Shown here in pieces: positions 1,661 to 64,000 of a stretch of DNA of 64,000 nucleotides. Each line of letters starts with the position of its first letter. Positions within the stretch are counted from its first letter, which is position 1. Both the position numbers and the translations under genes were made by a program. The DNA comes from Chrysomallon squamiferum (lineage: Eukaryota > Animalia > Mollusca): assembly GCA_012295275.1 (NCBI GenBank), contig CM022673.1, positions 19,406,001-19,470,000 of the forward strand, given 5' to 3'. The notes below the pieces were generated by a model. That model saw nothing but the letters and a program-made list of their open reading frames with translations. It was not told where the DNA came from and ran no database searches.

Positions 1661-2870
1661 GTATGACTGGCTTCATGATTTAAGCAATTTTATGAAACCT
1701 TCGATCATTTTTCAGTTATAACAATGATAGACTTTAATGCTGTCTTTCTAAGTAAACGCTCTTTATGGATTTGCTGTTCTGAGTGGAAATTTAAATTATA
1801 CATTTTTTTTTTTTTCGTATAACCTAATTTTTCATGGTGTTAACCCTTTATGTTTGCTCACTGAAAGGACATCGTTTGTGTTCTGTTCGATTCACCAAGT
1901 ATGGATGTAGGAAAACTGTATAGTGGAATTTCATTTTATTTTCAAGGATGCGGCAAGGACATGAGCCCTGTTTCACCGAATGACTACAATGTGAAACCAT
2001 CTAAGACAGCAACGTTTCCAGATAAGGTCACGGAAGTAACCGTAACTTTGGAGACCACCACTGACGAAACAGTCTGGTACAAAGTCACCTTCGATGCTCC
2101 CGATAAAATCACTGCTGTGGATTTCACTGTTGGTGACAAAAACGTGAGTATTCAGTAAAATGTTATAAATCCTTGGTTTTAATGTCCGAGTACCGTATGC
2201 ATATCTTGCTACGTTTAATATATAATATCACTATTATTGAACGAGTGTCTTCTCAGTCTGTATTCATATTCGTCTGCAGTACTTATATTGTAACTGGAGT
2301 TAACTTAGTGACGAAACCTTTTCCCCTTCTCGTTAAAGGTCAATGGAAAACTGCAAAATAGGAAATTTGTGTTTGAAACTGACGAAAATGGATTGAAAGG
2401 AAAGACTCTTACAATAAAACTAACACGCTCCGTGCCAGGACCTGCGTCTGTAACGCTCGACAATATCGAAGTGATGGCTTGCCAGAAAGGTATGTTCTCC
2501 AACATGTATAAAAATGTTAGTTTTGTTTCAGGTGTTACAAAAGAGATTTCAGTAGTCTTTTCAAAAATCAAGAATTAACGTGTGCTTTTGGTGAAAGGTG
2601 GTGTTCACAATTAAGAAAAGAGAAAGTGAACTAACGTTTTGCTGTACACTACTCCATTCAAGATTTATCTGTACCAGTAAGAACGGAATTAGCAGATACC
2701 TTTAGAATAGTCAAACCTGCTGCACTGAAAACTATTTTGTTGAAGATACAACATGCGTAAATGCGTGAACTTTCTTCTGGTGAATCTGTTTGTCTATTTC
2801 CTTGGTATTTGTATATCTATAATTTGCGTAATCACCTGCAGTTAAATGATCAGCATTTATAATGCGAAAA

Positions 2871-2909
<39 letters not shown>

Positions 2910-4645: not shown

Positions 4646-4684
<39 letters not shown>

Positions 4685-6420: not shown

Positions 6421-6462
<42 letters not shown>

Positions 6463-8199: not shown

Positions 8200-8238
<39 letters not shown>

Positions 8239-17200: not shown

Positions 17201-20200
17201 TGAATTTTACTCTCTTTTTGAAAATAATACATGTTCTTTATATCTTCGAAAACCTATACTCTCCTGTTTCCGATTAGAAAGCCGAATTTTACGCAGTTTC
17301 GATTTCATTTCCACCGTTTTCTTTTTAGTTCCAACGACATCTGTAGTAAGTACAGTAGTACCTACTTCAACAGTTCCATCCATTAGCGTTAGCGGCACTG
17401 TAGTTTCAGGTAAATAATCTAGACAACACTTAATTATTTAATGCAAATTTCTCTTCCGTGCATACTCATCAGCACTGTTCTCTTCATACGATTTCGTTTT
17501 TCACATTTTTACGGCGATATTTTCCTCATCACCCTCGAAAAAAAATGTAACATAAATTATTGATGCTTGTCGATTACCCTTTCAAATTATCACGAACTTA
17601 CCGATTTTGATATATTGGGAACAACATTCTCTAGAAAATAATGATAAATTATATTAAGACATGTAGCTTCATGACACTTTCCTACGGTCATCCTGTTATC
17701 CAAAATAATCTACACGACTATTTTTCTTTATTGATGTAATTATTAGTTCTTAACCTACCATTATACAATCCAACAGGCACACCACCAACTGCAAGTGTAA
17801 CACCTACTTCAGCAGTACTTAGCACCACGACCGTTCCATTTGTCACTAGCGTGTCAGGTACGGCTACTTAAGCTATGATGTGAAATTGTTCTATCACCCA
17901 CTTTCTGGATCATGTCTCTCCCATATACTTTAATCATTTAAAGTCACGATATTGCTAGCCTCCCATGTTCGACTGAATTTTACTCTCTTTTTGAAAATAA
18001 TACATGTTCTTTATATCTTCGAAAACCTATACTCTCCTGTTTCCGATTAGAAAGCCGAATTTTACGCAGTTTCGATTTCATTTCCACCGTTTTCTTTTTA
18101 GTTCCAACGTCATCTGTAGTAAGTACAGTAGTACCTACTTCAACAGTTCCATCCATTAGCGTTAGCGGCACTGTAGTTTCAGGTAAATAATCTAGACAAC
18201 ACTTAATTATTTAATGCAAATTTCTCTTCCGTGCATACTCATCAGCACTGTTCTCTTCATACGATTTCGTTTTTCACATTTTTTTTACGGCGATATTTTC
18301 CTCATCACCCTCGAAAAAAAATGTAACATAAATTATTGATGCTTGTCGATTACCCTTTCAAATTAACACGAACTTACCGATTTTGATATATTGGGAACAA
18401 CATTCTCTAGAAAATAATGATAAATTATATTAAGACATGTAGCTTCATGACACTTTCCTACGGTCATCCTGTTATCCAAAATAATCTACACTACTATTTT
18501 TCTTTATTGATGTAATTATTAGTTCTTCACCTACCATTATACAATCCAACAGGCACACCACCAACTGCAGCTACCACTGGCCCAAGTGTAACACCTACTT
18601 CAGCAGTACTTAGCACCACGACCGTTCCATTTGTCACTAGCGTGTCAGGTACGGCTACTTAAGCTATGATGTGAAATTGTTCTATCACCCACTTTCTGGA
18701 TCATGTCTCTCCCATATACTTTAATCATTTAAAGTCACGATATTGCTAGCCTCCCATGTTCGACTGAATTTTACTCTCTTTTTGAAAATAATACATGTTC
18801 TTTATATCTTCGAAAACCTATACTCTCCTGTTTCCGATTAGAAAGCCGAATTTTACGCAGTTTCGATTTCATTTCCACCGTTTTCTTTTTAGTTCCAGCG
18901 ACATCTGTAGTAAGTACAGTAGTACCTACTTCAACAGTTCCATCCATTAGCGTTAGCGGCACTGTAGTTTCAGGTAAATAATCTAGACAACACTTAATTA
19001 TTTAATGCAAATTTCTCTTCCGTGCATACTCATCAGCACTGTTCTCTTCATACGATTTCGTTTTTCACATTTTTACGGCGATATTTTCCTCATCACCCTC
19101 GAAAAAATGTAACATAAATTATTGATGCTTGTCGATTACCCTTTCAAATTATCACGAACTTACCGATTTTGATATATTGGGAACAACATTCTCTAGAAAA
19201 TAATGATAAATTATATTAAGACATGTAGCTTCATGACACTTTCCTACGGTCATCCTGTTATCCAAAATAATCTACACTACTATTTTTCTTTATTGATGTA
19301 ATTATTAGTTCTTCACCTACCATTATACAATCCAACAGGCACACCACCAACTGCAGCTACCACTGGCCCAAGTGTAACACCTACTTCAGCAGTACTTAGC
19401 ACCACGACCGTTCCATTTGTCACTAGCGTGTCAGGTACGGCTACTTAAGCTATGATGTGAAATTGTTCTATCACCCACTTTCTGGATCATGTCTCTCCCA
19501 TATACTTTAATCATTTAAAGTCACGATATTGCTAGCCTCCCATGTTCGACTGAATTTTACTCTCTTTTTGAAAATAATACATGTTCTTTATATCTTCGAA
19601 AACCTATACTCTCCTGTTTCCGATTAGAAAGCCGAATTTTACGCAGTTTCGATTTCATTTCCACCGTTTTCTTTTTAGTTCCAGCGACATCTGTAGTAAG
19701 TACAGTAGTACCTACTTCAACAGTTCCATCCATTAGCGTTAGCGGCACTGTAGTTTCAGGTAAATAATCTAGACAACACTTAATTATTTAATGCAAATTT
19801 CTCTTCCGTGCATACTCATCAGCACTGTTCTCTTCATACGATTTCGTTTTTCACATTTTTACGGCGATATTTTCCTCATCACCCTCGAAAAAAAATGTAA
19901 CATAAATTATTGATGCTTGTCGATTACCCTTTCAAATTAACACGAACTTACCGATTTTGATATATTGGGAACAACATTCTCTAGAAAATAATGATAAATT
20001 ATATTAAGACATGTAGCTTCATGACACTTTCCTACGGTCATCCTGTTATCCAAAATAATCTACACTACTATTTTTCTTTATTGATGTAATTATTAGTTCT
20101 TCACCTACCATTATACAATCCAACAGGCACACCACCAACTGCAGCTACCACTGGCCCAAGTGTAACACCTACTTCAGCAGTACTTAGCACCACGACCGTT

Positions 20201-23200
20201 CCATTTGTCACTAGCGTGTCAGGTACGGCTACTTAAGCTATGATGTGAAATTGTTCTATCACCCACTTTCTGGATCATGTCTCTCCCATATACTTTAATC
20301 ATTTAAAGTCACGATATTGCTAGCCTCCCATGTTCGACTGAATTTTACTCTCTTTTTGAAAATAATACATGTTCTTTATATCTTCGAAAACCTATACTCT
20401 CCTGTTTCCGATTAGAAAGCCGAATTTTACGCAGTTTCGATTTCATTTCCACCGTTTTCTTTTTAGTTCCAGCGACATCTGTAGTAAGTACAGTAGTACC
20501 TACTTCAACAGTTCCATCCATTAGCGTTAGCGGCACTGTAGTTTCAGGTAAATAATCTAGACAACACTTAATTATTTAATGCAAATTTCTCTTCCGTGCA
20601 TACTCATCAGCACTGTTCTCTTCATACGATTTCGTTTTTCACATTTTTACGGCGATATTTTCCTCATCACCCTCGAAAAAAAAATGTAACATAAATTATT
20701 GATGCTTGTCGATTACCCTTTCAAATTAACACGAACTTACCGATTTTGATATATTGGGAACAACATTCTCTAGAAAATAATGATAAATTATATTAAGACA
20801 TGTAGCTTCATGACACTTTCCTACGGTCATCCTGTTATCCAAAATAATCTACACGACTATTTTTCTTTATTGATGTAATTATTAGTTCTTCACCTACCAT
20901 TATACAATCCAACAGGCACACCACCAACTGCAGCTACCACTGGCCCAAGTGTAACACCTACTTCAGCAGTACTTAGCACCACGACCGTTCCATTTGTCAC
21001 TAGCGTGTCAGGTACGGCTACTTAAGCTATGATGTGAAATTGTTCTATCACCCACTTTCTGGATCATGTCTCTCCCATATACTTTAATCATTTAAAGTCA
21101 CGATATTGCTAGCCTCCCATGTTCGACTGAATTTTACTCTCTTTTTGAAAATAATACATGTTCTTTATATCTTCGCAAAACCTATACTCTCCTGTTTCCG
21201 ATTAGAAAGCCGAATTTTACGCAGTTTCGATTTCATTTCCACCGTTTTCTTTTTAGTTCCAACGTCATCTGTAGTAAGTACAGTAGTACCTACTTCAACA
21301 GTTCCATCCATTAGCGTTAGCGGCACTGTAGTTTCAGGTAAATAATCTAGACAACACTTAATTATTTAATGCAAATTTCTCTTCCGTGCATACTCATCAG
21401 CACTGTTCTCTTCATACGATTTCGTTTTTCACATTTTTACGGCGATATTTTCCTCATCACCCTCGAAAAAAAATGTAACATAAATTATTGATGCTTGTCG
21501 ATTACCCTTTCAAATTAACACGAACTTACCGATTTTGATATATTGGGAACAACATTCTCTAGAAAATAATGATAAATTATATTAAGACATGTAGCTTCAT
21601 GACACTTTCCTACGGTCATCCTGTTATCCAAAATAATCTACACGACTATTTTTCTTTATTGATGTAATTATTAGTTCTTCACCTACCATTATACAATCCA
21701 ACAGGCACACCACCAACTGCAGCTACCACTGGCCCAAGTGTAACACCTACTTCAGCAGTACTTAGCACCACGACCGTTCCATTTGTCACTAGCGTGTCAG
21801 GTACGGCTACTTAAGCTATGATGTGAAATTGTTCTATCACCCACTTTCTGGATCATGTCTCTCCCATATACTTTAATCATTTAAAGTCACGATATTGCTA
21901 GCCTCCCATGTTCGACTGAATTTTACTCTCTTTTTGAAAATAATACATGTTCTTTATATCTTCGAAAACCTATACTCTCCTGTTTCCGATTAGAAAGCCG
22001 AATTTTACGCAGTTTCGATTTCATTTCCACCGTTTTCTTTTTAGTTCCAACGTCATCTGTAGTAAGTACAGTAGTACCTACTTCAACAGTTCCATCCATT
22101 AGCGTTAGCGGCACTGTAGTTTCAGGTAAATAATCTAGACAACACTTAATTATTTAATGCAAATTTCTCTTCCGTGCATACTCATCAGCACTGTTCTCTT
22201 CATACGATTTCGTTTTTCACATTTTTACGGCGATATTTTCCTCATCACCCTCGAAAAAAAATGTAACATAAATTATTGATGCTTGTCGATTACCCTTTCA
22301 AATTAACACGAACTTACCGATTTTGATATATTGGGAACAACATTCTCTAGAAAATAATGATAAATTATATTAAGACATGTAGCTTCATGACACTTTCCTA
22401 CGGTCATCCTGTTATCCAAAATAATCTACACGACTATTTTTCTTTATTGATGTAATTATTAGTTCTTCACCTACCATTATACAATCCAACAGGCACACCA
22501 CCAACTGCAGCTACCACTGGCCCAAGTGTAACACCTACTTCAGCAGTACTTAGCACCACGACCGTTCCATTTGTCACTAGCGTGTCAGGTACGGCTACTT
22601 AAGCTATGATGTGAAATTGTTCTATCACCCACTTTCTGGATCATGTCTCTCCCATATACTTTAATCATTTAAAGTCACGATATTGCTAGCCTCCCATGTT
22701 CGACTGAATTTTACTCTCTTTTTGAAAATAATACATGTTCTTTATATCTTCGAAAACCTATACTCTCCTGTTTCCGATTAGAAAGCCGAATTTTACGCAG
22801 TTTCGATTTCATTTCCACCGTTTTCTTTTTAGTTCCAACGTCATCTGTAGTAAGTACAGTAGTACCTACTTCAACAGTTCCATCCATTAGCGTTAGCGGC
22901 ACTGTAGTTTCAGGTAAATAATCTAGACAACACTTAATTATTTAATGCAAATTTCTCTTCCGTGCATACTCATCAGCACTGTTCTCTTCATACGATTTCG
23001 TTTTTCACATTTTTACGGCGATATTTTCCTCATCATCGACTAAAAAAAAAATGTAACATAAATTATTGATGCTTGTCGATTACCCTTTCAAATTAACACG
23101 AACTTACCGATTTTGATATATTGGGAACAACATTCTCTAGAAAATAATGATAAATTATATTAAGACATGTAGCTTCATGACACTTTCCTACGGTCATCCT

Positions 23201-26200
23201 GTTATCCAAAATAATCTACACGACTATTTTTCTTTATTGATGTAATTATTAGTTCTTCACCTACCATTATACAATCCAACAGGCACACCACCAACTGCAG
23301 CTACCACTGGCCCAAGTGTAACACCTACTTCAGCAGTACTTAGCACCACGACCGTTCCATTTGTCACTAGCGTGTCAGGTACGGCTACTTAAGCTATGAT
23401 GTGAAATTGTTCTATCACCCACTTTCTGGATCATGTCTCTCCCATATACTTTAATCATTTAAAGTCACGATATTGCTAGCCTCCCATGTTCGACTGAATT
23501 TTACTCTCTTTTTGAAAATAATACATGTTCTTTATATCTTCGAAAACCTATACTCTCCTGTTTCCGATTAGAAAGCCGAATTTTACGCAGTTTCGATTTC
23601 ATTTCCACCGTTTTCTTTTTAGTTCCAACGTCATCTGTAGTAAGTACAGTAGTACCTACTTCAACAGTTCCATCCATTAGCGTTAGCGGCACTGTAGTTT
23701 CAGGTAAATAATCTAGACAACACTTAATTATTTAATGCAAATTTCTCTTCCGTGCATACTCATCAGCACTGTTCTCTTCATACGATTTCGTTTTTCTCAT
23801 TTTTACGGCGATATTTTCCTCATCACCCTCGAAAAAAAATGTAACATAAATTATTGATGCTTGTCGATTACCCTTTCAAATTAACACGAACTTACCGATT
23901 TTGATATATTGGGAACAACATTCTCTAGAAAATAATGATAAATTATATTAAGACATGTAGCTTCATGACACTTTCCTACGGTCATCCTGTTATCTCAAAA
24001 TAATCTACACGACTATTTTTCTTTATTGATGTAATTATTAGTTCTTCACCTACCATTATACAATCCAACAGGCACACCACCAACTGCAGCTACCACTGGC
24101 CCAAGTGTAACACCTACTTCAGCAGTACTTAGCACCACGACCGTTCCATTTGTCACTAGCGTGTCAGGTACGGCTACTTAAGCTATGATGTGAAATTGTT
24201 CTATCACCCACTTTCTGGATCATGTCTCTCCCATATACTTTAATCATTTAAAGTCACGATATTGCTAGCCTCCCATGTTCGACTGAATTTTACTCTCTTT
24301 TTGAAAATAATACATGTTCTTTATATCTTCGAAAACCTATACTCTCCTGTTTCCGATTAGAAAGCCGAATTTTACGCAGTTTCGATTTCATTTCCACCGT
24401 TTTCTTTTTAGTTCCAACGTCATCTGTAGTAAGTACAGTAGTACCTACTTCAACAGTTCCATCCATTAGCGTTAGCGGCACTGTAGTTTCAGGTAAATAA
24501 TCTAGACAACACTTAATTATTTAATGCAAATTTCTCTTCCGTGCATACTCATCAGCACTGTTCTCTTCATACGATTTCGTTTTTCACATTTTTACGGCGA
24601 TATTTTCCTCATCACCCTCGAAAAAAAATGTAACATAAATTATTGATGCTTGTCGATTACCCTTTCAAATTAACACGAACTTACCGATTTTGATATATTG
24701 GGAACAACATTCTCTAGAAAATAATGATAAATTATATTAAGACATGTAGCTTCATGACACTTTCCTACGGTCATCCTGTTATCCAAAATAATCTACACGA
24801 CTATTTTTCTTTATTGATGTAATTATTAGTTCTTCACCTACCATTATACAATCCAACAGGCACACCACCAACTGCAGCTACCACTGGCCCAAGTGTAACA
24901 CCTACTTCAGCAGTACTTAGCACCACGACCGTTCCATTTGTCACTAGCGTGTCAGGTACGGCTACTTAAGCTATGATGTGAAATTGTTCTATCACCCACT
25001 TTCTGGATCATGTCTCTCCCATATACTTTAATCATTTAAAGTCACGATATTGCTAGCCTCCCATGTTCGACTGAATTTTACTCTCTTTTTGAAAATAATA
25101 CATGTTCTTTATATCTTCGAAAACCTATACTCTCCTGTTTCCGATTAGAAAGCCGAATTTTACGCAGTTTCGATTTCATTTCCACCGTTTTCTTTTTAGT
25201 TCCAACGTCATCTGTAGTAAGTACAGTAGTACCTACTTCAACAGTTCCATCCATTAGCGTTAGCGGCACTGTAGTTTCAGGTAAATAATCTAGACAACAC
25301 TTAATTATTTAATGCAAATTTCTCTTCCGTGCATACTCATCAGCACTGTTCTCTTCATACGATTTCGTTTTTCACATTTTTTTACGGCGATATTTTCCTC
25401 ATCACCCTCGAAAAAAAAAATGTAACATAAATTATTGATGCTTGTCGATTACCCTTTCAAATTAACACGAACTTACCGATTTTGATATATTGGGAACAAC
25501 ATTCTCTAGAAAATAATGATAAATTATATTAAGACATGTAGCTTCATGACACTTTCCTACGGTCATCCTGTTATCCAAAATAATCTACACGACTATTTTT
25601 CTTTATTGATGTAATTATTAGTTCTTCACCTACCATTATACAATCCAACAGGCACACCACCAACTGCAGCTACCACTGGCCCAAGTGTAACACCTACTTC
25701 AGCAGTACTTAGCACCACGACCGTTCCATTTGTCACTAGCGTGTCAGGTACGGCTACTTAAGCTATGATGTGAAATTGTTCTATCACCCACTTTCTGGAT
25801 CATGTCTCTCCCATATACTTTAATCATTTAAAGTCACGATATTGCTAGCCTCCCATGTTCGACTGAATTTTACTCTCTTTTTGAAAATAATACATGTTCT
25901 TTATATCTTCGAAAACCTATACTCTCCTGTTTCCGATTAGAAAGCCGAATTTTACGCAGTTTCGATTTCATTTCCACCGTTTTCTTTTTAGTTCCAACGT
26001 CATCTGTAGTAAGTACAGTAGTACCTACTTCAACAGTTCCATCCATTAGCGTTAGCGGCACTGTAGTTTCAGGTAAATAATCTAGACAACACTTAATTAT
26101 TTAATGCAAATTTCTCTTCCGTGCATACTCATCAGCACTGTTCTCTTCATACGATTTCGTTTTTCACATTTTTACGGCGATATTTTCCTCACCACCCTCG

Positions 26201-27623
26201 AAAAAAATGTAACAGAAATTATTGATGCTTGTCGATTACCCTTTCAAATTAACAGGAACATACCGATTTTGATATATTGGGAACAACATTCTCTAGAAAA
26301 TAATGATGAAAGCCGAGTTTTACTCAGTTTCGATTTCATTTCCACCGTTTTCTTTTTAGTTCCAGCGTCATCTGTAGTAAGTACAGTAGTACCTATTTCA
26401 ACAGTTCCATCCGTTAGCGTTAGCGGCACTGTAGTTTCAGGTAACTTAATTTATGCCACCTCAAATTATTTAATAGAATCTTCACGTTTTATACCATATG
26501 TTTCAGCTCTCTTGTCTGCATATCGCTTCTTTTCTCTTCCTTCCTTTGTCTACAGATGTGTTGCAAATTAATTGATACCTGTTTATTCTCGTTCCACATC
26601 ATCACCAATTTATGTTATAGATTCATCTGCACCGGGAAGAAACATTTTCGAGAAAAGTATAGTACAATTTTGTTAGATCCTTGGCTTTCTTACACTTTTT
26701 GGAATAGAATGTAAGGGAGATAATGTAGAGGATTATTTTAATTTATTGATGTAATTATTAGTTCTTCACAGCCATTGTACAATCCAACAGGTATATCACC
26801 AACTTCAGCTACCACTGGCCCAAGTTTCATACCTACTTTAGCAGTACTTAAAACAGCAACCGTTCCGTTTGTCACTAATGTGTGACATATTCATGTGTTC
26901 CTGTATTCCTCTTTATATTTTGAAAAAAGTTACGTTTATACAGGCTCTACTCCATTTCGTCTCTTTTCTTTTTAATTGCAATGTCATCTGTCGTCATGAA
27001 ATTTTATTGTCAGTGATGAAATCTTTTATTAATCCAGATACAGGTGTATTTGTATTAACTAATATCTTCTTGTTGATGTCTTACATTACGAGGATATTAT
27101 GTTATTCTTAGTTCGAAAGTGAAAATATGAATATTATAGAAGACTTTATATTAATTTTGACTGAAATGTCTTTCTTCGAAACGAAGATGAATAGGAATCA
27201 GGCTAAATTTTTTACTGTGTATCGTTATGGAAATCTGCCGTTTTAGAGCTCTACATCTTCGCGCTTTTTGCCCTTAATGTTTCTTTATATTATCGCTGTT
27301 AACACAGATGCAAAACTAATATTTGAACACTTTGGTAAAGTATAGCTGTTTAGTAAAGCATAACATTATGAATTTTAATAACGACGGCCCTTTACCGATT
27401 AGCAACAAGAAATCACATATCCAATATATTTAACAAAAAAAGTTACGAGTAGCTTCTAGAACGATAACTGATCTTTGAAAAGGGATAATTCTAAAACATT
27501 TCAACATTTCTAATATTGAAAATGAAAAATACAAGCCGTCATAATTTAGTTAGTTATGAAAAATTTTGAGAATATCATTATTAAGTATTTTATAGATATC
27601 GTACAAATTTAACAGATGATAAA

Positions 27624-49632: not shown

Positions 49633-52480
49633 GGGTCATTCCGTGTCAAATCACCCAATGGTTTAAACCCGACCGTCTCAGATTTTTATAAAACTTGGTA
49701 TACTTGTTGACTGGGATCCCACAGCACCAAATCTGACATTTTAGCTCAGTCAGACCAGTGGTGTGGGAGATACGGCCCACGGAATTTTGAGATTTTTGCC
49801 AAAAATGGGTGTGACCACCAACCTTAGAACCCTCATATCTCAGGAACTACTGGGCCAATCTTCACAAAATAGGTATTGTTAGAAAGGCAAAATGACAAGG
49901 ATACCAAATCTGCCAATTTTGTTTAGTTTGGAAAATATTGGAGTACCTTGACCTTTTGACCTTTGCTATGACCTTGAAATTGACCGTGTGGATCACGTGA
50001 TCTTGAGATGACCTTTATTGAAATTTAATCTCCCACATGTTAACTAAAACATATAAAAGTTTCCTGGGTGTAATATTTTTTGTTTAGCCACAATATAGAT
50101 TTAAAAATGCACATACCTGAAAATAACACCTTTTCAGCCATTAACATCTGATTGACTAAAACCTGAATGATCAATTCTGGATGCTAGGAATCACCATCTC
50201 TTGATCATCGAGTAAGACATTGTAGGCCTACATGTATGCATAAAGTTCACATATAAAAGTTTCCTGGGTATAATATTTTTGTTTAGCCTTAATAGAGATT
50301 TAAAAAAAAATGCATACCTGCATGGATGATTGATACAATGCATTACAATGTACATTTTCTCTGAGACTAAAAACTCATCTTTGGAGTTAAAACCCACCTG
50401 ACATGTCTGAAGGAATGCCTGAAGGATATGAAAAAGATGCCAAATGGCATGACATGTTCTACACAATCAGGCTCAAAGGGTTAACAGGAAGTAATGCTTC
50501 AGGCAGGTCAGGAACTCCTTTAGATTCCCTGGTGCAATCCCCATTGAGCACATAGCAATTTGAAGTTTAAGACAAAGAAGTTTCTTCATCTGCATTTCTT
50601 TGACAATCTGAAGCTTTTTTAAGTTGGACACAATGTCAGATGTTGATATATAAACAATATTTTTATTTCATAAAACCTATTAAGTAATTTTATCATGTCA
50701 TGTGGGCCTTGCCATTGGTTTTGAACAAGGCTTCAGTCAACAACAGTACAACCCAGTCTGAAATCAGGCGTCATCAAAAAAGTGATGTACTGCATAATGT
50801 ATTTGTACACCCAGTCTTGGCACAGAGTATGAACAAGGTCTACTTCACCTTAATAAACTGTGATCTATACTTGAGAAGATTGACATAAATGCCCAAGACT
50901 TGTGGGCCTTTGGCAATAACACATGTACTCTGCTGCCATTTTATGACCTGCTTAACTTTACTGAAAGGGTTTCAGGATTTGATTTAATATTTAGGAAAGC
51001 ACTGACTTTGAATTGAAGGTGCAGGCCAATACTGAAAATCCTTATTTCTTCCAGGGCTAACTGCAGCTTTAACTCTCCTGAAAATGTGTGTTATCAACAC
51101 CATCATATCAAAAAGGAGTTGTTGCAAAGTGTATGGAAAACTGAGGAAATCGAACTCCTCACTCTTTGAAGTGGGATCAAAACATGGGACATCAAGAGTA
51201 TCATGAACAAGAACGTTTCATCAAATTTTCAACATCGCAGAAAAACTGTTGTGATCCCCTTAATCGCCACCCTGAGCAAGCACGCACTAGATCTTTAAGA
51301 ATTGTTAGCATGGGCACTTACAAATGCTTAGTAAATCCTCCAAAGACACTAGTGCCAGGAGACAAGTTGTGCTGTGACTGTCTGATTACCCTTCAGAAAT
51401 CAAAGGTCCTGCAGAGGATGGCTTTAGTATGGGTGGTACTACAATGGGAGAATTTGGTGATAACTTGCCAGACAAACCGCTGGTTGTTGTTTCCCCAGAA
51501 AAGGACTTTCATTTGAATTCTATTCTGTTGAGTTTAGGCGAAACGCCTGTCAAACTCCATTCACTAGCACATTCCAGTAAATGAATGAAAGGACAGAAAA
51601 AAACTAGCATCAGCTACAGTAACATTAAAATGACATCTTAATGTCTGAATCCTACCCAGAGCGTGTGCAAATCTTGATTTTGTCACCCTTTACCATTGAA
51701 AGGACAATGAATTGAAGGAAGAAATAATCCAATTTTATGAAAGTGATGAGAACAGTAGAATGTGTCTGGGAATGAAGGATACAGTGAGCATTTGAAACAA
51801 ACATAGTGAGAAGGTTAAGCATCAGAAACACCTAGTTCTCTCAAATTTATGTGAACTTTATGCATACATGTAGGCCTACAATGTCTTACTGGATGATCAA
51901 GAAAGATGGTGATCCCTAGCATCCAGAAATGATCATTCAGGTTTTAGTTAATCAGATGTTAATGGCTGTAAACGTGTTATTTTCAGGTATGTGCATTTTT
52001 TAAATCTATATTGTGGCTAAACAAAAAATATTACACCCAGGAAACTTTTATATGTTTTAGTTAACATGTGGGAGATTAAATTTCAATAAAGGTCATCTCA
52101 AGATCACGTGATCCACACGGTCAATTTCAAGGTCATAGCAAAGGTCAAAAGGTCAAGGTACTCCAATATTGTCCAAACTAAACAAAAATGGCAGATTTGA
52201 TGTCCTTGTCATTTTGCCTTTCTGACAATACCAATTTTATGAAGATTGGCCCAGTAGTTCCTGAGATATGAGGGTTCTAAGGTTGGTGGTCACACCCATT
52301 TTTGGCAAAAATCTCAAAATTCCATGGGCCGTATCTCCCACACCACTGGTCTGATTGGGCTAACATTTCAGATTTGGTGCTGTGGGATCCCAGTCAACAA
52401 GTATACCAAGTTTTATAAAAATCTGAGACGGTCGGGTTTAAATTTCTTTTTTTTTTGGGTGATTTGACACGGAATGACCC
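49633..52480 (+). mobile_element. Sola2-like DNA transposon, internally deleted, ~620-bp TIRs, TATT TSD
   Basis: Termini GGGTCATTCCGTGTCAAATCACCC…GGGTGATTTGACACGGAATGACCC; TATT on both flanks; TIRs 49633-50253 / 51848-52480. Confidence 0.8.
51166..51870 (+). pseudogene. Broken transposase (Sola2-type N-terminal region)
   Basis: CCDPLNRH…LVPGDKLCCDC Cys/His cluster and downstream FYESDENSRMCLGMKDTVSI*…KHQKHLVLSNLCELY, with stops and frameshifts, inside the TIRs. Confidence 0.7.
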
Positions 52481-52809: not shown

Positions 52810-54232
52810 GAGTTATTCCATGTCAAATCACCCAATGGGTTAAACCAGACCATCTCAGATTTTTATGAAATTTGGTATACTTGTTGATTGAGATTCCACA
52901 GCTGAAATTTTAAGCCAATCAGACCAGTGATGCAGGAGATATGCCCCCCCCCCATGAATTTTGAGACTCACCCGAAATGGGCATGACCATCAACCTTTGA
53001 ACTGTTATATCTCAGGAACTACTGGGCCAATCTTCATAAATTGCCAGTAATAGTAATAATGATGATGATGATTATGATGATAACAATAACAATGATAATA
53101 ATAATCATAACGATAATTAAAGCAATAGTAGTAGTAGTAATACAAGTAGTAGTAGTAGTAATTGTGGACGTAGTCTCATAGATGTAGCAGTAGTAGTAGT
53201 GGCAATAGGTAGTAGAAGATATAATAGTAATGTAGAAGGAGCATTAGTATAATTAGTAGTACTAGAAGTAGTAAGATTACTAGTAATAGAAGTAGCTAAA
53301 TAAGAAATAGCTCTTGTAGTAGTTGTTGATATAATGGTGATGCTAGTAATAGTAGAGGTAGTAACAGTATTTGTGATAATAAAATTAGCAGTAGTGGTGA
53401 TAATGGTGACAGGTAATAACAGGAGCCTAGTGGGAGTTAAAATAGTAATAGCAGTACCAGAAGTAACTACTAGTACCAAATGTAGCATCACTGATAATAG
53501 TGTCAGGAGATGAAAATGTAGTATTAGTAGAAATAGTTAGGAACAAAAGGTAGTGGGAATAGACAGAGTAGTAGAAACTTCTAATTGTCATGTGATCAAT
53601 GGGGATTTCACCATGGTATTTCAAGGAGTTCCTGACATGCCTGAAGCCACACTTCCTGATTGTGTAGAACATCTCATGCCATTTGGCATCTTTTCATATC
53701 TTTCAGACCTGTCAGGTGGTTTTTGACTGCAAAGATGAGTATTTGGTCTCAGAGAAGTCTATACATGTAGAAAACGTACATTGTAATCCATGCAGATATG
53801 CATTTTTAAATCTATATTGTGGCTAAACAAAAAAGATTACACCTTTGAAACTTTTATATGTTTTAGTTAACATGAGGGAGATTAAATTTCAAGAAAGGTC
53901 ATCTCAAGGTCACATGATCCACAAGGTCAGTTTGAAGATCATAACAAAGGTAAACAGATCAGTGTACTCCAAACTGACCAATAATTTGGTATCCTTGTTA
54001 TATTGCCTTTTCAACAGTACCATTTTTATGAAATTGACCCAGTAGTTCCTGAGATATGAGGGTTCAAAGGTTGGTGGCCAAAAATCTCAAAATTTGGTGG
54101 ATATATCTCCCACACCACTGGTCCGATTTGGTGCTGTGGGATCCCAATCAATGAGTATGCCAAGTTTCATAAAAATCTGAGACAGTCAGGTTTAAAATAT
54201 TATTTTGGGGGGTGATTTACACTGAATAACCC
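52810..54232 (-). mobile_element. Second, more diverged Sola2-like copy with TAAT TSD and captured low-complexity DNA
   Basis: TAAT/GAGTTATTCCATGTCAAATCACCC…GGTGATTTACACTGAATAACCC/TAAT; 53590-53800 is the reverse complement of ~50310-50550 of the first element. Confidence 0.75.
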
Positions 54233-54608
54233 TAATGTATCATTCAATACATATACTTTATGGCATTTGTTTACATTGTCTGTATATTGTTATTACATTA
54301 TTACATTTACATTCACAATTTCCAGATAAGTGCTTCTACCTATTAGTCCTTGATATTGAAGGTTCTCTAGAATACATTGTGATATTCATCACAATTTCAT
54401 TTTTACTAGCAAAATGCTTACACAAGTCTTCATGATATAGTGCACATCTAAAAACTGCATTTTCAGGAGGGTTTTTTATGTTTATTATCATATGCTATAA
54501 AGTTTACCTGTAAATTTAATGATTATTTTTATTTTCATAGTGGACCAAATTCCAACCACTGCTGCTGCAATCAGTGTATAAGGCAAAAAATAGAAATATA
54601 ACAATTCT

Positions 54609-54773
54609 ATGATACAGTTTGGAACAAGAGGTGAAGAAAACAACATGGCATCAGACAAATTAAAACATATGTCACCAAATGAACGTTTTTATCAAAGGAT
54701 AAAGAAACCTTTTGTAGAAACAGTGAATCCAAGACATCTTTTACCATATCTATCCCTTAGCATACCTGATGAG
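54609..54773 (+). CDS. NLR-like coding exon 1: CARD N-half (…FVETVNPRHLLPYLSLSIPDE)
   Basis: Acceptor TTTCATAG at 54540; donor GAG/GTGGGT; LLPYL motif of MAVS/RIG-I-type CARDs. Confidence 0.8.
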
Positions 54774-57576
54774 GTGGGTGGTTTTACAGCTAATTTTTAT
54801 TTTTTATTATTATTTTTATTTGTTTGGGTTGTTTTGGTGGGGTTTTTTTTATGATTATTTAAAGAATTTAATACACACAGATAGAAGGTATATGGAAGAA
54901 AATGTGATATTCTGCAGGTGGTAACACCCATAGATAAGACATTACATAAAACAAAAAAGCTTAATATCTTGTTCAAAAATCTGTTTCGAAAAACCTGTTT
55001 TTAGCAGATTATGTTTTAAAGGATTTTCTAATGTCATAGAATGGAACGGTATATAATCTGTTGCTAATAATGAAATAAAGTTTTGTGCAGTACATACAAA
55101 GCATCCTGTAAAGGTTACTAAATGACATCATTTAGACATACAAAAAATATATAATAATAATAATAAATAAAGAAAATAAAGAAAGAAACATAGTTTGGTA
55201 AATCCTAGGAAGCAAAAGTGAGTTTTCTTATAGGATGACATTAATCAGTGTTAGCATATTTGGCCTCTGTTAAAACAGTTAGTTTTCAAAATGGTTTAGA
55301 CCAAGGACAAGATTATTTAATAAGCAATAACAATAACATACAATTATTTAAAAATTTAGTAAATATATAAGCCACTATTCTCTTGACTTCTGAAAAGTGA
55401 CTGAAATGGTTCTATATCTGTAACAGGGTTAATTAGTAATTTGTTTTGTTAGGTACTGTATGAAGTTAGTTTTTGTTTTTGGTTTATCATAAGTTAGATT
55501 ATATGGGAAGTTTATATCAGATTTGACAGAAATTAAATTTGAAAATTTTTAATTCTGAAAAGGAAATAATAAGTCTCACAAATGTGAAATGGCAATTTAT
55601 GGCACAGCTTATATGACAGTTTTTATTATAAAATCAGGAAGAGGTTGAAGCCTGTCAGGATACAAAAGGACAAACAAATGCAGCAGCTATCCTCCTGCGA
55701 AAACTTTATTATTATCCTGGTTGGATTGATGGATTAATTAAAGTCTTGAAATACAAAGAAGTTGGGCTGACTCACCTAGCTGATGAATGTGAAAAGTGTA
55801 AATGTATGTATTATAACTTCGGTTGAATTATTTGAAACATTCCAGAACTATTTGCTAAGTCACTTTTAATGATATAATATTAAAACAGCTGATACTTTTA
55901 TTAAAATATATTTATAAATATGATAATATTTTTAATAATAATAATTTTTTTATTATTATTATTCATTTCTCCTATTTCGCCAATAAATTAATTCTGAATT
56001 AAATGTTGGATTTTACGTTAGGATTGATCTGTTAAAATGAAGCCACATTTTAAGTGCATTAATTCATTTCTATTCATTTACCATTTCCATCCTCTTCTCA
56101 CATTGTGATAAAGTTAATCTCTTGCAGGTACTCTTGTGCTTACAGCCTACATGATAATGGATTGTAGAACCATGTTTTAGAGTTTTTGTATCAAAATTAA
56201 AACAATGAATCTGTACAAAAATGTAAACTTTGTTAATCATCATAAAATTCAAAGTTTCACCAAGTTCACACTCATTGCTGTCTGTCACTTACTTGTAATG
56301 GCTGCTGATCATTTAGATTATTTAAAAGGAAATGAATTTATTTTTTTCATTAGTTTCTGTTGATTTCATAGAAGACATTTATACTAACAACTACTATATA
56401 TTTTGACCAGTTATAACTTGGCCCATTATCTGAATAAGATTAAAGAACCAAATCTGTGAAAGGCTTATATGATCAATTACATAAACATATTTATTTATTA
56501 TCTTCAATTCAGTAATAATTACTGTTTTGATGAACAGTCAGAAATTAAAATTAATTTTGGTTATAGATTTGAAGATGTTTTTTCCATTATTATTTGTAAT
56601 GAGGAAGGGGGTTTCTTGTGAATTCTGTCAGTGATAGTAATCTTACAATGAAGACGAGCCTAAAACAAAATAGAATTTACGAATAGTATGTTGATAACAT
56701 AAAAGTAAGTGATGAGTAATATGATGTCCATTAATGACATATAAATTTTCTGACTTAACTGATTAGCTCAAAACCAGTTTTAGAATAATGTTTTGTAAAT
56801 TTTGGAAAAAAATTATTTTATATCTGAGCTAGTTTGTAGAAGAATCAAAAATGTTATTATAAAATGATTTTAATCCATCTCTAAATTTATTTAAATGTTC
56901 AACTAGATGTAATAAATAATAAGTTCATTCATCTGGGCCTGTCAATCTCATACTAACAGTTCCAAGCAGATTTACATTAAAATAGTTACTCTTACAAGAT
57001 ATGGCTGATCGGCCAATATTCATATATACACACACAAACACATAATGAAATATATTGAAATCAAAATGTAATAACATCATATAAATATATAATGGTTTAT
57101 TATGAATAAAATCAATAAATGTAGATCATAAACATATTCTATTCAACTTGTGCTCCACTCAGGCGGGCACATGCACAGAGAAGTTGCAGAGCAAAATAGC
57201 CACCACTCTAGTAGTCTCCACAGAACCTTGTGGTTTCCATCTTAAATTTTCGCAGTTTCCTAAGTAACACCATTCAAAGAAAACTAACATGAAAGGGATC
57301 AATTCATGTAACATTATATTTTTGTATTTTAATAATAATAATACAAAGAGACTAACCCATTAATTACCAAGGTTGATCGACATGAGTCATAAAATTTTAC
57401 CATTACAACTTTTATATTAATAATGAGCAAACAAAAATATTATTTCAATTTATTATAAAATAAAGTAGTCCTACCAGTCAATTTTGTATATATATAATTT
57501 TAAAAAAAAAGTAATAATAAAGGTATATGTCACAATTATGTGTATTTTGTCTTTCTAATTTCAAAATATTTTAATT

Positions 57577-57607
<31 letters not shown>

Positions 57608-58772
57608 AGAAAAAAGTATTATTAAGATGAGTTTATTTTTAAAGTTTAACATGAAAATTAAAAAAATTATTAGCTTTCCAAAATCATTTATAAAAAAATG
57701 TAAAATATTGACAACAATTCAATTATGGATAAGGAATGATCTGTTTATTCAAACTGTCAGTAATTTTCAGTTAAACAAGCATCCTTAATAAAGTTTTATA
57801 AAAACTGAATGTGGTATCTGAAAAGATTTCTGGATTTTGATTGTGATGGCATCAAATCACATCTTAATTACTGTGTTACATCAGCAATGTTATTGTATTT
57901 GTTATATTTTGTTTTTATGTATGTATGTATGTATGTATTTTTTAAAATCTTTTTGCTCTCTGAATTATTTCAACTGAAATGCCATTAGGTATTAAACAGC
58001 CAGTTATAAGGAATTTGGAAGAGAAATATTTGTATTACACTAAAATAATTAGCTTACTCATTTCAGCTGAGATTTTGGCAGTGATAGAGGTAACTGGTGA
58101 TGTTGATATGAGACCTGGTGTTGAGAGTATGGAAATAGACACAGAAGACCCCCAAGTTGAAACTCAAATCAAATTGGCTGAATTCTTTCAGACAGTTTTA
58201 AATAATCTCACACAGGAAGAACAGTTTTCACAGATTCTGTATCATTTAAATCAGGTAGGAAAATTGATTTTCTTTTTTCTTTTTTTGGGATAGGTAAATG
58301 AAGGACTTCATATCAAAATAAAAGCATATCTACAACAACATGACAGTCACAGCATGTGATTATTCGTTAATTTCATCTTTATGTTGTTACACACTCCCGT
58401 ACTTTGGACTTTTAATAAACTGACTCTAGTCTAACAGGTAACACAATCATAACATAACAAACAAATATTGTTAATTTATATTGTCACCAAAAGATTAAAC
58501 AGTTCATGCTCTCTTTCATAACTGTGTAAATATTTGGGTTGGAGTCACTTGAGGCCTTGTATCATTATCCTTATATAACAAAATTTATTACTAACCAGCA
58601 GAGCTTTATTCACAAAATTATTTTGTGAATCAAGAATGGCCCTTTCTGTATTTACTGCTTTCAAAGATTTTTTTTATTTGATCAGTTTTTGTTCTTCATA
58701 ATAATTTGGAATTTGGGGTTTTATTTATTTATACTTTTTTATTATTTTTATTTTTGTTATTTTTGTTATTTT

Positions 58773-58807
<35 letters not shown>

Positions 58808-61800
58808 TTTTTTATTAAATCCCCAAAACACTAAATAATTTTTGTTATTATTATTATTATTTCTTTGTAATGTGAATGATGTTTGTAGATTTTCATTTTT
58901 CTGGATTTTTTTGGTAGGAAAAATGTTTCAGTGACTTTTCAGAATTTTGTACATGTACTCAATAAATTGGAAAATATATACTGGAGGAATGTTTTTAACA
59001 AAATTTAAATTTCTTTTCAGATATCAAAAATGATATGTGTTGAAGCACAACCAGGATGTATCGAACTTCTTCTAAGACTTGATAATCTCAACGATCTGTA
59101 TGTCTTTCAAGAATACTATAAAGGAGGTGCTCTCCAAGATGCTTTAGAAAAAGATATTTTAACACCAGAACAGACTTATAAAATTAAGACAGCTGCAGAA
59201 AACTTTGGATTAAAGATAAAATCCTTGAACATTTGTCTTTCAATAAAAGAAGAGGAAATTGAAAACTGTTTCAGATATCTGAAAGATAAAGGTAAATTTT
59301 CAAAAAAAAATTGAGTTTAAAAACATGTTGTGAAAGCCTTCTGCCTTGTTAGATCAATACTGCATATTGTTTTGTTCCAGGACACATTTCCTTTATTTAT
59401 GAAGAGAAAAATTCCATCTTAATGTCTTAATCTTGCTAATTATTATACATCGACTAACTATATCACATAAGAAGGTCAGAATAGTAGCTGGAGGAGTCAT
59501 GGTGAGAATTAAGACCTGGGCGACACTTAAAAGGCAGCACTTTTGGGTTGTTGTTACAAGCCTTTATATGGTGCTTGTCTTTCTGACTGAGCAACCTAAA
59601 AATTAATATTTCCGGTTTTCTAATTTATGCCTCCTAAATATATTCTATCATCTAGATCTTTTCATTGAAAGTAAACTGACTATATTCAAAATACAAAATA
59701 GAGAACAAAAATGTTTTCTTTTGTGACTTGTACAGTCATCATATTGTTTTCAGAAAAAACAGTTTTCTTACCTCTTTTAAGCAGAACATTATCAGATACC
59801 TGTCAACTATAAATCCTTTTATAATACCAACAATATATAAATATATAAATCATCTGTCTCATAATGAAATTGCCTATCTATTTTGCAGATATCTTTAGCT
59901 ATTTTATATTTTTAGAGAAGAAATAAAAAATCAGTTTTAACCCTTAAATTCATAAAAAATCATGTTTTAAACATAAATGAATTGTTTATTTTCTTTCAGT
60001 CATATTAACTTATCATCTCCCAGTTGCTTGTTTATGTTACTGTATACCCATTAATAAGTGATGTTTACATAAATCTTGTGACAATACCAATGTAAACTAG
60101 TAATCTATAAGTTGGCCATGAAGGGATAAGATTCAGTTGTTTTGTAATGATACTATTTATTATCAACTTTGTTAATCAACTTTGCTGATTGGTTTTCAAG
60201 AACAAAATAATAATTTAGAAGTATAAGAAATTTAGTTCTTTATCAAATATTTTTGGCAGAGTAACTCTACAAAATATTTACAAAATAATCAGTGGCTTAA
60301 TGTCTTTTATAGACATGCTGAAAGTTAAAAATTCTTATACAGTTTTGGTAAGGGATAAAGAATGAGTACATTTTAGATAATTTGTTCAAGGATTAATATA
60401 ATTTAAAACTGTATTTAATCCATTTTAGAACTAAATGATAATGTAGCTACTGAATTAGTACACTTTTTTTTCAAGCGTATATATGTGTATGCATGTGTGC
60501 TAGCTACATATATTACAAATTGTATATTTTATTTGGTCTAGGTCTAAATGAAAACGGTAAGTGTGTGAATGGTACCATTAATAGCAAAAATAATTTGATT
60601 CTAACTAAAATATATATGATCAACATTAGTCTTAGATCAGCCTCTGAGCCTTCGGCTTACTTCATAAAAAGTTGTGTTAGAGGTGTTTTTACTGAGGTTT
60701 CACAAAATAGTCTTACATAAAAATAAAGTTTGAATGACATAAATTTTTCTTAGGACAGTTTAACTCAAAACATTAATTAAGTAATTTATTTTTTTGTTTG
60801 TTTTGTATACAATGAATACACTATCCTTTTGAGAAAAAGACTAAGAACTAACTAGGACTTCATGCAAAAAACAAAAAAAAAGTTATAAAAAAACAAAATA
60901 ATACAAGCAGCACATACTCTGGCAAAATTCAAACTCTTACTATTGACACACATCATACAACTAATACTCAAAACTATAAAATTATATTCAAGTATAGCTT
61001 ATTTCTTCTTTAAATTCTGAAATATAGTAAAATTTACTACTGTGGCAATAAAATAATTTTTGTTATTATTTGCAGTATTTTAAAATCTTTATTGCCCAGA
61101 ATTACTGAAGTGTTATGATACAATTTTTCATTTATTTCATCATTATTTTGCAGAATCAACTCCAAGAAAAACATTTTTGGAAGCATTGCTGTATCCTCTG
61201 CAGGATGATACAAAGAGGCATAGAGAAATACTTGAGAGTCAGCACCTTTGGCCACCAGTCTATCAAGAACTTTGGAAAAAAACTATTGACCCACAAAAAA
61301 TTGAACAAAGAATGGTAAACTGTTCAGAAATTGCTGATCTGATTCAGTTTGTTCTTGATTTCATGGAAAACAAATTTGTTCTGAATGATACATTGTTAGA
61401 AGATATGAAAAATATTTGGCTTGCATTAGTTTGTAGTATTGAAAATGAAAAACAAATTGTTATAATATCAGATTATTACGGTTTGTCTAAAATATTTTTT
61501 GAGGAAAACGTAGCTATGGAATTTTATACAAAGTATGGTTTAACTCTTGAGAGCAGACTTCAAAACAGTGTCCAAGATTTGGTCAAAAATGGAATTCTTA
61601 GACAGGTGTCAGAGACTGAAGATGGTTATGAATTTTCCAGCATACTTCTCAGGGATTTTGTTGCCTATAAAGTATGTTCTTCCCTTGGAAAACTAATTGG
61701 TTCATATTATGATGGATTTAGATACATACTGCATACATACACTTTTCTTAGTGTAACAAGTCAAAAGGATGATATGATTGCTCCTTTCCTTTCAAAACTT

Positions 61801-63492
61801 GATTCCTTACAGCAACTAAACTTGGTTGGCTTGGCCATATCATGGGATAAATTACATTCTGATAATCGTGGAATGGAGTTTGTGGAAAATGTACTGAAAT
61901 TTGAGATTCTGGATCTCTGTGATAATAGTGTGGTAAAAAATATGAAATATTTCAGAAAACCTCTGAAAATGCTACACTCCTTTCAAGTTAAAGTCTGTCT
62001 TCCAGATCTGTCAGGTTCATTGGCTCATGTTGTTAATGAACTGATAAATAAGACATCAAGAGAGTCTATTACTATACCAGCTGAAGTTTCTTCTCTCTGT
62101 GTGGAAAAGTTTGAAGTCATTTTGAAAGTTCTAACAGTACTTGATTTTCACCCAAGTATACGTGAAGACAAAGAGAATAAAAATAACTTTCTTACTGATC
62201 AGGGTTTATTTCTCGAACAAATTTCAAATACTGTAGATATGAATCAGTCATTTGAACTTATTTTTTCAAAGATCTCACTGTGTTATGACAAAATTGAAAA
62301 ATTGTGCCTGTTTGTGCCATGTATGCAACATATCTCCAGATTTATTTTGAAGGAAACTAACCTGAAGAGATCAGAAGCCGAACATTTATTGTCACTGATG
62401 GATCCATCTGTGGTAAAGGGAATCTCTCTTTCTGGTTGCTCTTTAGAAATGTCATCTGGACCAATTGGTTTGTCCCAGTTTTCAAAACTGGAATTTCTTG
62501 ATCTTGATCATACAAACATGCAAGATGCTGGTATACTTTCTTTAGAAAAAGATCTCAAAGGTATTCACCAACTGAAGGAACTAAACATTAGTTATAATAA
62601 CATCAGTACTGTAGGACTTTTACAACTGTCATCATTTATAGTGGACAGCAAGCATCTGTTAACACTTCGCCTTCATGGCAATAGTTTTGGTGAAACTGGA
62701 GGGTTTATACTTGGAGTTATCCTTTCCAGAATGAGCCAGCTGGAAATACTAAGTGTGAGGGATTGTAATCTTCAAGATATTGGTATGGTTCATCTGTCTT
62801 CATCCTTTTCTAATCAGACCTGTTTAAAGAGATTGTCTGTAAGGAACAACAACATCAAAGGAAGTATGTCTGTTGAAATATTTGAAAATTTGGCAAAATG
62901 TCAGTTCCTCTTGTTTATGGACTACAGTCAAAACATTATTATTCCCGATAGAGAAGAAGGAAAATCTGATTCTGACATGATCTCTAAAGCTGTACTCAAA
63001 CTTCTAGCAGGCACCCATTTCTGGCATCATCTTAGTTTTTGGAATTGCAACATCAGCAAGTCAAATATTTTTGATAATCCTGCTCAGCTGAAACATCTTT
63101 ATCAAATCACCTTTTTATGTCTCCAAACAAATCATATAGATGATGCTATGGCTAAAAAAATATCTAGCTGCATTCATGAGTTTAGATTTCTTCAGGATCT
63201 TAATTTGCGGGATAATTCTATTGGTGATATTGGTGCTGTCTCTCTAGCTTCTGCCTTAATAAACCACAAATATCTGCACAGTCTGTGGCTTGACTGGAAT
63301 GTCTTTGGTTATCAAGGTGCAGAAAAGTTAATAGAGCTGGCCTTAAATCTTCCAAATATTGTGGACTGCAAATTGGCCAACCACCATCTTGCACCTCCAG
63401 AGAAAAAAAGTCTTTTGGAAAAGGTTGGTACTGCAGTTGTTCGTGAAACTGTTCATGAAGTCAAAAGAGGGAAATTAACTATTTTACTCTAA
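54609..63492 (+). CDS. NLR-like protein, ~1042 aa: CARD - TRADD-N-like - helical/WHD remnant - RI-like LRR (exons 54609-54773, 55638-55803, 58067-58254, 59021-59291, 61154-63492)
   Basis: Intron phases 0,1,0,1 all compatible; total 3129 nt; in-frame stop upstream of ATG 54609 within the exon that starts at 54541. Confidence 0.8.
55638..55803 (+). CDS. NLR-like exon 2: CARD C-half (EEVEACQDTKGQTNAAAILLRKLYYYPGWIDGLIKVL…THLADE)
   Basis: Not in the ORF track; AAATCAG acceptor; GxxxAAxxLLxxL…GW…L pattern; alternative same-phase donor at 55797. Confidence 0.8.
56082..56210 (-). CDS. Candidate minus-strand exon inside NLR-like intron 2 (IHCFNFDTKTLKHG…QCEKRMEM)
   Basis: TTTTTGTACAG acceptor; ATG/GTAAAT donor; 129 nt open in phase 0-0. 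Confidence 0.35.
58067..58254 (+). CDS. NLR-like exon 3: acidic linker and start of TRADD-N-like domain
   Basis: TTTCAG/CT…CAG/GTAGGA; phase 1-0. Confidence 0.75.
59021..59291 (+). CDS. NLR-like exon 4: TRADD-N-like domain (GCIELLLRLDNLNDL…YYKGGALQDALEKDILT…LSIKEEEIENC)
   Basis: TTTTCAG/ATA…AAAG/GTAAAT; motif pattern seen in invertebrate death-fold/NLR proteins. Confidence 0.75.
61154..63492 (+). CDS. NLR-like exon 5: helical/winged-helix remnant plus ribonuclease-inhibitor-like LRRs
   Basis: 779-codon open frame; LVKNGIL…YEFSSILLRDFVA WHD-like motif; repeated ~28-aa LxxLxLxxNxIxDxG. Confidence 0.92.
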
Positions 63493-63783
63493 CTCCAATT
63501 TCTAATCCTCTGTTGCTGTTTTTGTTAAGATGTTCTTTTGGACCAAAGAAATAATGGTTTAAATACATTATTAATATGTCCATTTTTACTGCTGCACTGT
63601 AAACGATACAAAAAGTGGTGAATACACTATAATTTAAACAAAATCACACACACACACACACAGGTTAGAGGAAATATACATTTCCAGGAAATTTAGGAAA
63701 ATGTGTATGTCTGAGTCACTCATTCTGGTAAGAAAACCAATAGTAATGAAAGAGTAGTTTACATCACATCAAGCATACATTAC

Positions 63784-64000
63784 CTGAGCATTTCCAGTAA
63801 CTTCATTGGATATAGTTGTAGAGTTGAACTTGCTGAATCAGTTGCATCTTCATCAGGAACTGGCAATAAACTAGCTACAAGTAGATAGTCCTCTGACAGC
63901 AACTGGTGGACAATTTCAAGAGGGAGGCTAGATGATGAGAGACCAGTGTAGGCACCAGAACCCAACAATGCCACAAATGGGGAACACTTAATTATACTCA
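63784..64000 (-). CDS. Internal coding exon of an unidentified minus-strand gene (SIIKCSPFVALLGSG…MKLLEML)
   Basis: Frame open to the window edge; higher GC than flanks; ends CTCAG/GTAATG donor (phase 2). Confidence 0.55.

Follow-up and report, generated by a model that had tools for sequence, protein, structure and literature searches.

Switching in NLRs, the leucine-rich repeat receptors that have a nucleotide-binding domain, is taught as a nucleotide-driven process. Marine-invertebrate proteins with a constant head, made of a Death-like and a TRADD-N domain, and with variable C-terminal repeats have been catalogued by Kaur et al. 2021 (PMC8195603), who propose that TRADD-N holds the adjoining domains in an inactive state pending a signal. 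The rows listed of supplementary file 4 of this work, which may contain more rows, include, for two Branchiostoma species, CARD+TRADD-N+leucine-rich repeats (LRRs) and, for two oysters, CARD+CARD+TRADD-N+LRRs (1170 and 1124 aa). Lottia, Pomacea and Octopus are entered there with CARD+TRADD-N and nothing else, and Aplysia and Biomphalaria with a coiled coil in addition to this pair. NTPase-bearing forms (Death/DED + TRADD-N + STAND + winged helix-turn-helix (wHTH) + helical region + LRRs) are listed as well, and corals are represented by forms that have the helical region and LRRs but no NTPase. Here we describe a gene of the snail Chrysomallon squamiferum, on the forward strand at positions 54609-63492 of a 64,000-nucleotide stretch (hereafter, the window; assembly GCA_012295275.1, contig CM022673.1, positions 19,406,001 to 19,470,000). 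This gene is an RNA-validated new member of the catalogued, uncharacterised class. Its product associates a CARD, a predicted TRADD-N domain, a helical spacer and LRRs, with no nucleotide-binding domain, and chances are about even that it is a cytosolic immune sensor switched by TRADD-N and not by ATP. The original prediction, made from the DNA sequence alone, regarded this architecture as unusual; it is less so than assumed, and less surprising, because NTPase-less CARD(+CARD)+TRADD-N+LRR proteins of Crassostrea and Branchiostoma are already listed in that catalogue. The feature without an earlier record is the possible winged-helix relic discussed below.

The gene had been predicted to have five in-frame exons giving about 1042 aa, the TRADD-N-like exon being joined straight to the exon starting at 61154. 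By enumerating GT-AG sites near the proposed exon edges, we obtained six in-frame models, one of which encodes 1042 aa from exons 54609-54773, 55638-55803, 58067-58254, 59021-59291 and 61154-63492 (intron phases 0, 1, 0 and 1; all GT-AG). RNA contigs agree with this model only: each of the four joins was seen in 4 of 4 runs, and two contigs of 4694 and 4761 nt each span all five exons. All these RNA runs come from a single study (n = 4), and assembled contigs report presence only and lose rare variants, so that a rare extra isoform is possible. The join from 59291 to 61154 removes 1862 bases with GT..AG ends, again in 4 of 4 runs. Two in-frame ATGs are present, at 54609 and 54645, the second with a purine at -3 and a G at +4. 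The Met of the orthologue from Gigantopelta aegis (described below) aligns to the second one, its residues 1-43 corresponding to 54645-54773, and the protein may therefore be 1030 aa long instead of 1042. The gene is thus real, expressed, spliced and intact.

We then searched for the missing nucleotide-binding domain. The absence of a Walker A motif from the protein and from the intervening intron, which had been claimed, was found again in the protein and in 24 intron reading frames (intron 4, 59292-61153, read in six frames), and it extends to all 1506 six-frame segments (>=25 aa) of the whole 64-kb window. Four STAND hidden Markov models (HMMs) run on the same 1506 segments gave a best E-value of only 0.11, and Pfam NACHT matches neither the gene's protein nor the G. 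aegis orthologue. No NACHT exon appears between 59291 and 61154 in the transcripts of the 4 runs, which all show the direct join. Moreover, a 7231-nt contig from a run of another study (X5; library not recorded, unspliced and DNA-like, perhaps the very source of the window) covers 58872-63630 without a gap and with 9 letters different, and intron 4 is therefore not collapsed in the assembly. Both checks, each able to overturn the original prediction, thus favour it. The distance between TRADD-N and the winged-helix-like motif is about 160 aa, whereas Walker A lies about 270-300 aa before the same motif in real STANDs, leaving no space for an eroded NTPase. On these spacings we also rejected an inactive STAND module of the iSTAND type, i.e. 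a full P-loop domain with eroded motifs.

This spacing is a stronger argument for outright NTPase loss than the His-to-Ser change in the winged-helix motif, which had been taken as a sign of a lost nucleotide pocket. At the position of the STAND motif His, two of the three family proteins have Ser and one has Tyr. Among the nSTAND4 proteins that score over the Pfam cut-off and whose fetched locus shows a Walker A, 7 of 7 have no His there either; the change is therefore not diagnostic of a lost pocket, and this part of the original prediction falls. In these bacterial nSTAND4 loci (L120-L124, L249, L251), Walker A is kept, and Tyr, Ser, Leu or Phe replaces the winged-helix His.

The CARD, the TRADD-N-like domain and the LRRs that had been proposed were all recovered, by Pfam, by PDB sequence matches and by ESM Atlas searches with the orthologue. 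The CARD is split between coding exons 1 (54609-54773) and 2 (55638-55803). Exon 2 alone matches Pfam CARD_2 (E 2.6e-6; 27.8 bits for a cut-off of 28.2), and the G. aegis orthologue passes the cut-off with 40.2 bits. Among PDB sequences, this CARD matches RIG-I best (E 0.016) and MAVS weakly (E 1.5), which supports a CARD of RIG-I/MAVS type. Exon 3 (58067-58254) encodes an acidic variable linker and, from about 58171 on, the start of the TRADD-N-like domain, which continues in exon 4 (59021-59291). For this domain, no Pfam HMM match was obtained in the gene's protein or in the orthologue. Residues 168-293 of the orthologue fall in ESM Atlas with TRADD-like_N (PF20694) clusters (score 0.92; 205-209 shared features), and 10 of the 10 best family-bearing matches of this query belong to the same TRADD-N family or clan. 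A Gly-Cys pair at 59054-59059, kept in the orthologue, fits the tiny + Ser/Cys turn motif reported by Kaur et al., in which a Ser (sometimes Cys) turn touches TRAF2 in TRADD; the pair is placed in the TRADD-N beta2-beta3 turn by sequence pattern. As in the class of Kaur et al., an N-terminal Death-like domain precedes one TRADD-N located between other domains, and the C-terminal repeat sensor (LRR, ankyrin or WD40 in that class) is here made of LRRs. These form a ribonuclease-inhibitor-type array at 62332-63492, stop codon included (Pfam LRR_6, E 4.6e-13), to which ribonuclease inhibitor and the LRRs of NOD2 and NLRP3 are among the closest PDB sequences. The array is preceded by a degenerate LRR-like stretch (61891-62343) in which, from about aa 482-510 on, LxxLxL-type strands are kept in all three family proteins. 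With C-terminal LRRs and an N-terminal death-fold domain but no P-loop nucleotide-binding domain, the protein is NLR-like in outline and not an NLR by definition.

To find relatives, residues 1-330 of exon 5 were used as a query, which detected 1 relative in 2072 word-sharing candidates and 2 in 1.84 billion representatives. The first (P0002) is the uncharacterized protein LOC121381942 of G. aegis (XP_041367303.1, 1063 aa), and the second (P0001) is an ENA protein whose match starts with exon 5's first residue. The G. aegis protein is colinear with the whole of the spliced protein and carries no insert where exons 4 and 5 meet. Conservation of the ATPase-less layout therefore extends to at least one other snail. 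Identity to G. aegis is 58% in the CARD, 21% in the linker and 53% in TRADD-N. Along exon 5, it is 47% at aa 264-340 (47-50% for the two relatives), 29% at aa 341-436 (29-34%), 19% at aa 437-480, 46% in the degenerate LRRs (45-46%) and 58% in the LRRs (55-58%). The three named modules, CARD, LRRs and TRADD-N, are thus the best conserved, and the candidate winged helix and the next segment the least, a pattern to be expected if the function lies in these modules. With the first 300 residues of the G. aegis protein as query, only the protein itself was retrieved among 3644 candidates. The LRR half retrieved 8 proteins at E 1e-12 (7993 scored), i.e. the two relatives and six proteins matching in the LRRs only, with 21-29% identity (3 rotifer RING-B-box-LRR proteins and 3 NLR-like proteins, used as controls).

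The middle region encoded by exon 5 is the part that bears on the origin of the gene. It begins with a conserved segment (aa 264-340; 61154-61383), helical in low-confidence models, which is possibly a relic of helical domain 1. The candidate winged helix follows (aa 341-436; 61384-61671), with its wing and last-helix motif at 61567-61671; the LVKNGIL...YEFSSILL motif previously read as a winged helix was located at 61579-61668. Next comes a predicted helical bundle at the position of helical domain 2 (aa 437-522; 61672-61929), the best-confidence part of the 260-aa model (pLDDT 53-69). Its structure matches are to generic helical repeats only, and its second half may alternatively be the first degenerate LRRs. 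In ESM Atlas, the neighbours of residues 1-260 of exon 5 are nSTAND_NTPase4 (0.93, 0.92), NCH2 and SNaCT clusters, with a low number of shared features (140-145). Pfam PF24406 corresponds in nSTAND4 to the end of the winged helix, about 270 aa past Walker A. We performed 12 profile-profile comparisons of the three-sequence middle region with STAND alignments, for which fetched loci and control proteins supplied the sequences. Eight of them fall on the winged-helix end motif, which represents 4 of 7 non-overlapping STAND sets (nSTAND4, cyanobacterial NACHT, Bacteroidota NACHT and nSTAND3); the sets of proteobacterial NACHT, AAA_35 and animal NLRs do not land there. The best comparison, with nSTAND4 (9 sequences, 7 over and 2 under the family cut-off, 2 loci without Walker A being left out), has a probability of 11%, a P of 0.0028 before correction for 12 tries and a score of 27.8 over 34 columns. 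This score is above those of 100 block shuffles (maximum 22.4), of the reversed sequence (10.7) and of LRR slices (10.2-11.6).

Two origins can be weighed from these data. One is descent from an NLR, plausible through a winged-helix relic. The landing of the best local alignments on the same motif in 4 of 7 STAND sets, the nSTAND4 match outscoring 100 of 100 block shuffles, the Atlas neighbours (STAND C-terminal clusters) and a predicted secondary-structure order that suits a winged helix (helix-strand-helix-helix-strand-strand-helix, pLDDT <50) all point in this direction. The other origin, for which the probability is considerable while remaining below one half, is that the gene never was an NLR: a CARD + TRADD-N cassette would have been joined by shuffling to an LRR exon of the ribonuclease-inhibitor type that had an unrelated helical cap, the motif resemblance being due to chance or generic; such an origin fits either an activating or a dampening function. 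It agrees with the various C-termini to which CARD + TRADD-N is joined in the invertebrate proteins listed by Kaur et al., and several results speak for it and against a winged helix. Pfam NOD2_WH and HD2 are not matched, whereas 3 of 3 control NLR-like proteins match NOD2_WH, one of them over the cut-off. A NACHT winged-helix HMM built from 54 bacterial sequences gives 9.4-15.3 bits to the controls and -3.0 to -4.6 to the family; hhalign with four NACHT profiles gives 30-95% to the controls and at most 2.3% to the family. In addition, the motif-landing alignments of any length cover 34-54 columns only. The structure models (region pLDDT <50) were too poor for structure searches to favour either side, so that the winged helix has no structural confirmation. 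The winged helix is therefore weakly supported: the place of the motif stands, while a folded NLR-type winged-helix domain is not borne out by the NACHT profiles. On balance, a winged helix derived from STAND proteins is slightly favoured, as is the view that the middle region is what is left of the winged helix and helical part of an ancestral TRADD-N NLR and now serves as a structural spacer that caps the LRRs. The proposed ATPase-less NLR derivative is intact, expressed, conserved and without a nucleotide-binding domain, its NLR descent being plausible and unproven.

Beyond gene structure, splicing, P-loop absence and conservation of layout, which are observed, we infer a mechanism for the putative TRADD-N-switched sensor. 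The LRR solenoid would bind a microbial or damage ligand, and binding would release an intramolecular hold in which TRADD-N is packed on neighbouring domains, following the general model of Kaur et al. The freed RIG-I/MAVS-type CARD would recruit a CARD partner, i.e. a MAVS-like adaptor, a short CARD+TRADD-N protein or a CARD-caspase. TRADD-N would act as a hinge, and its Gly-Cys turn may dock a TRAF. The output would be NF-kB/IRF signalling or cell death, with no nucleotide step. Oyster RIG-I CARDs are reported to bind oyster MAVS, which binds TRAF6 (PMC5557890), and a CARD-based output pathway therefore exists in molluscs. Several points weigh against such a sensor. The proposed function is drawn by analogy between domains, the TRADD-N assignment comes from a language-model search with the orthologue as query, Pfam being silent, every RNA run is from one study, only two relatives occur in the 1.84 billion representatives, the oyster proteins not being among them, and MATH is no universal TRADD-N partner according to Kaur et al.

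Other explanations of the same protein have to be compared with this sensor. It could be a decoy or brake, whose target is a ligand, an NLR or a RIG-I-like/MAVS CARD and which, being unable to oligomerise, dampens signalling, a function that could suit symbiont-tolerating hosts. The absence of the ATPase and the single RIG-I/MAVS-type CARD agree with this, the snail of the named relative is reported to carry endosymbionts (PMC7895826), and truncated plant NLRs are described as able to oppose full-length ones (10.1101/2021.01.27.428547). Nevertheless, we found no full-length paralogue with the same middle or N-terminal region to mimic, and the three modules are all conserved to a similar degree; this function is unlikely. 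A non-immune scaffold or inhibitor, which would hold a host protein in its LRR horseshoe in the manner of ribonuclease inhibitor and whose CARD/TRADD-N head would link it to apoptotic or transcriptional control (cf. DEDD2), is quite improbable. The best LRR matches do include ribonuclease inhibitor and ciliary LRR proteins, no paralogue appears in the window or among search matches, the relatives are well conserved, and Kaur et al. describe DEDD2 and NCOA6 as 'institutionalised' TRADD-N proteins; against it stand the RIG-I/MAVS type of the CARD and a narrow range which, with the parallel oyster, amphioxus and sponge layouts listed, suits lineage-variable immune genes. Finally, a NACHT exon might have been lost from the assembly or be used in another isoform, given the loss of rare variants in assembled contigs and the single RNA study. 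The direct join in every run, the unbroken intron in a contig from another study, the orthologue model without an insert and the absence of a P-loop from the window largely refute this artefact, whose probability is extremely low.

Outside the coding part, an upstream non-coding exon region of the 5' UTR lies at 53446-53949 (+ strand, edges approximate), with GT..AG joins 53947-54539 (3 of 4 runs) and 53360-53446 (2 of 4 runs). Transcript contigs run unspliced beyond the stop codon through 63493-64000 and about 1 kb past the window end, as a long 3' UTR; one minus-strand frame examined in 63493-64000 is closed. Just upstream of the gene, the segment 49633-52480 contains inverted repeat arms (49633-50253 and 51848-52480; 95% identical), and for the region between the arms the RNA runs show a contig depth that is very high and polymorphic; this segment is likely a multi-copy transposon-like element. 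Further upstream, two tandem arrays (20-10532 and 11262-26311) have periods of about 1780 bp (6 times) and about 788 bp (19 times), with copies about 99% identical. Each unit bears an apparent short Thr/Ser/Pro-rich exon flanked by splice sites, and the arrays likely correspond to a mucin-type gene with homogenised exon-intron repeats.

A conserved and expressed receptor, NLR-like in outline and ATPase-less, offers a concrete, clonable test of the TRADD-N conformational switch in invertebrate immunity, a proposal for which no experimental test was found in the literature searched. The same literature yielded no functional study of NTPase-less CARD(+CARD)+TRADD-N+LRR proteins and nothing relevant on NACHT-less CARD-LRR receptors, and no paper was found by locus identifier (LOC121381942 and the catalogued proteins). 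Mollusc NLR surveys tally NACHT-bearing genes (PMC9334734, PMC9646362, PMC11508797; PMC4346834 gives nothing further), and inventories requiring NACHT miss the CARD+TRADD-N+LRR class. If true, the winged-helix relic documents how an NLR can lose its ATPase. In a tentative scenario, with the balance leaning against it, an NLR deleted its whole nucleotide-binding domain, kept the winged-helix/helical/LRR half and used TRADD-N as a nucleotide-free switch to a CARD pathway of RIG-I/MAVS type; the oyster and coral forms would represent the same solution, reached once or repeatedly.

Compared with known proteins, the closest are LOC121381942 of G. aegis and P0001, which align in blocks that keep the same exon edges, lack an NTPase insert and have a last exon 47-48% identical to that of the present gene; the G. 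aegis protein, itself uncharacterised and not named in the listed material of Kaur et al., has a longer linker after the CARD. Among the proteins listed by Kaur et al. (Figure 4-source data 1), those of Crassostrea gigas (XP_011437929.1), C. virginica (XP_022308687.1) and Branchiostoma (XP_019637612.1, XP_002614043.1) have the same domain order with no NTPase annotated (858-1170 aa); they carry a TRADD-N of the DEDD2 clade and are likened to the present gene by annotated layout. The oyster forms differ by two CARDs and by the lack of an annotated winged helix in the rows listed, where TRADD-N directly before wHTH was found 0 times. The coral GT4 + TRADD-N + helical region + LRR forms are without an NTPase, like the present protein. 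The amphioxus and coral TRADD-N NLRs (Death/DED/GT4 + TRADD-N + STAND + wHTH + helical region + LRRs; e.g. XP_002614092.1, XP_015773770.1) keep their P-loop NTPase, and the likeness is one of layout: a deletion of STAND would give the present one. Animal NLRs of the NOD2/NLRC type (CARD-NACHT-LRR) share the N-terminal CARD and the ribonuclease-inhibitor-type LRRs, whereas the present protein has no NACHT, Walker A or FxHxxxQE motif, bears a CARD of apparent RIG-I/MAVS type and has a predicted TRADD-N in place of the NTPase.

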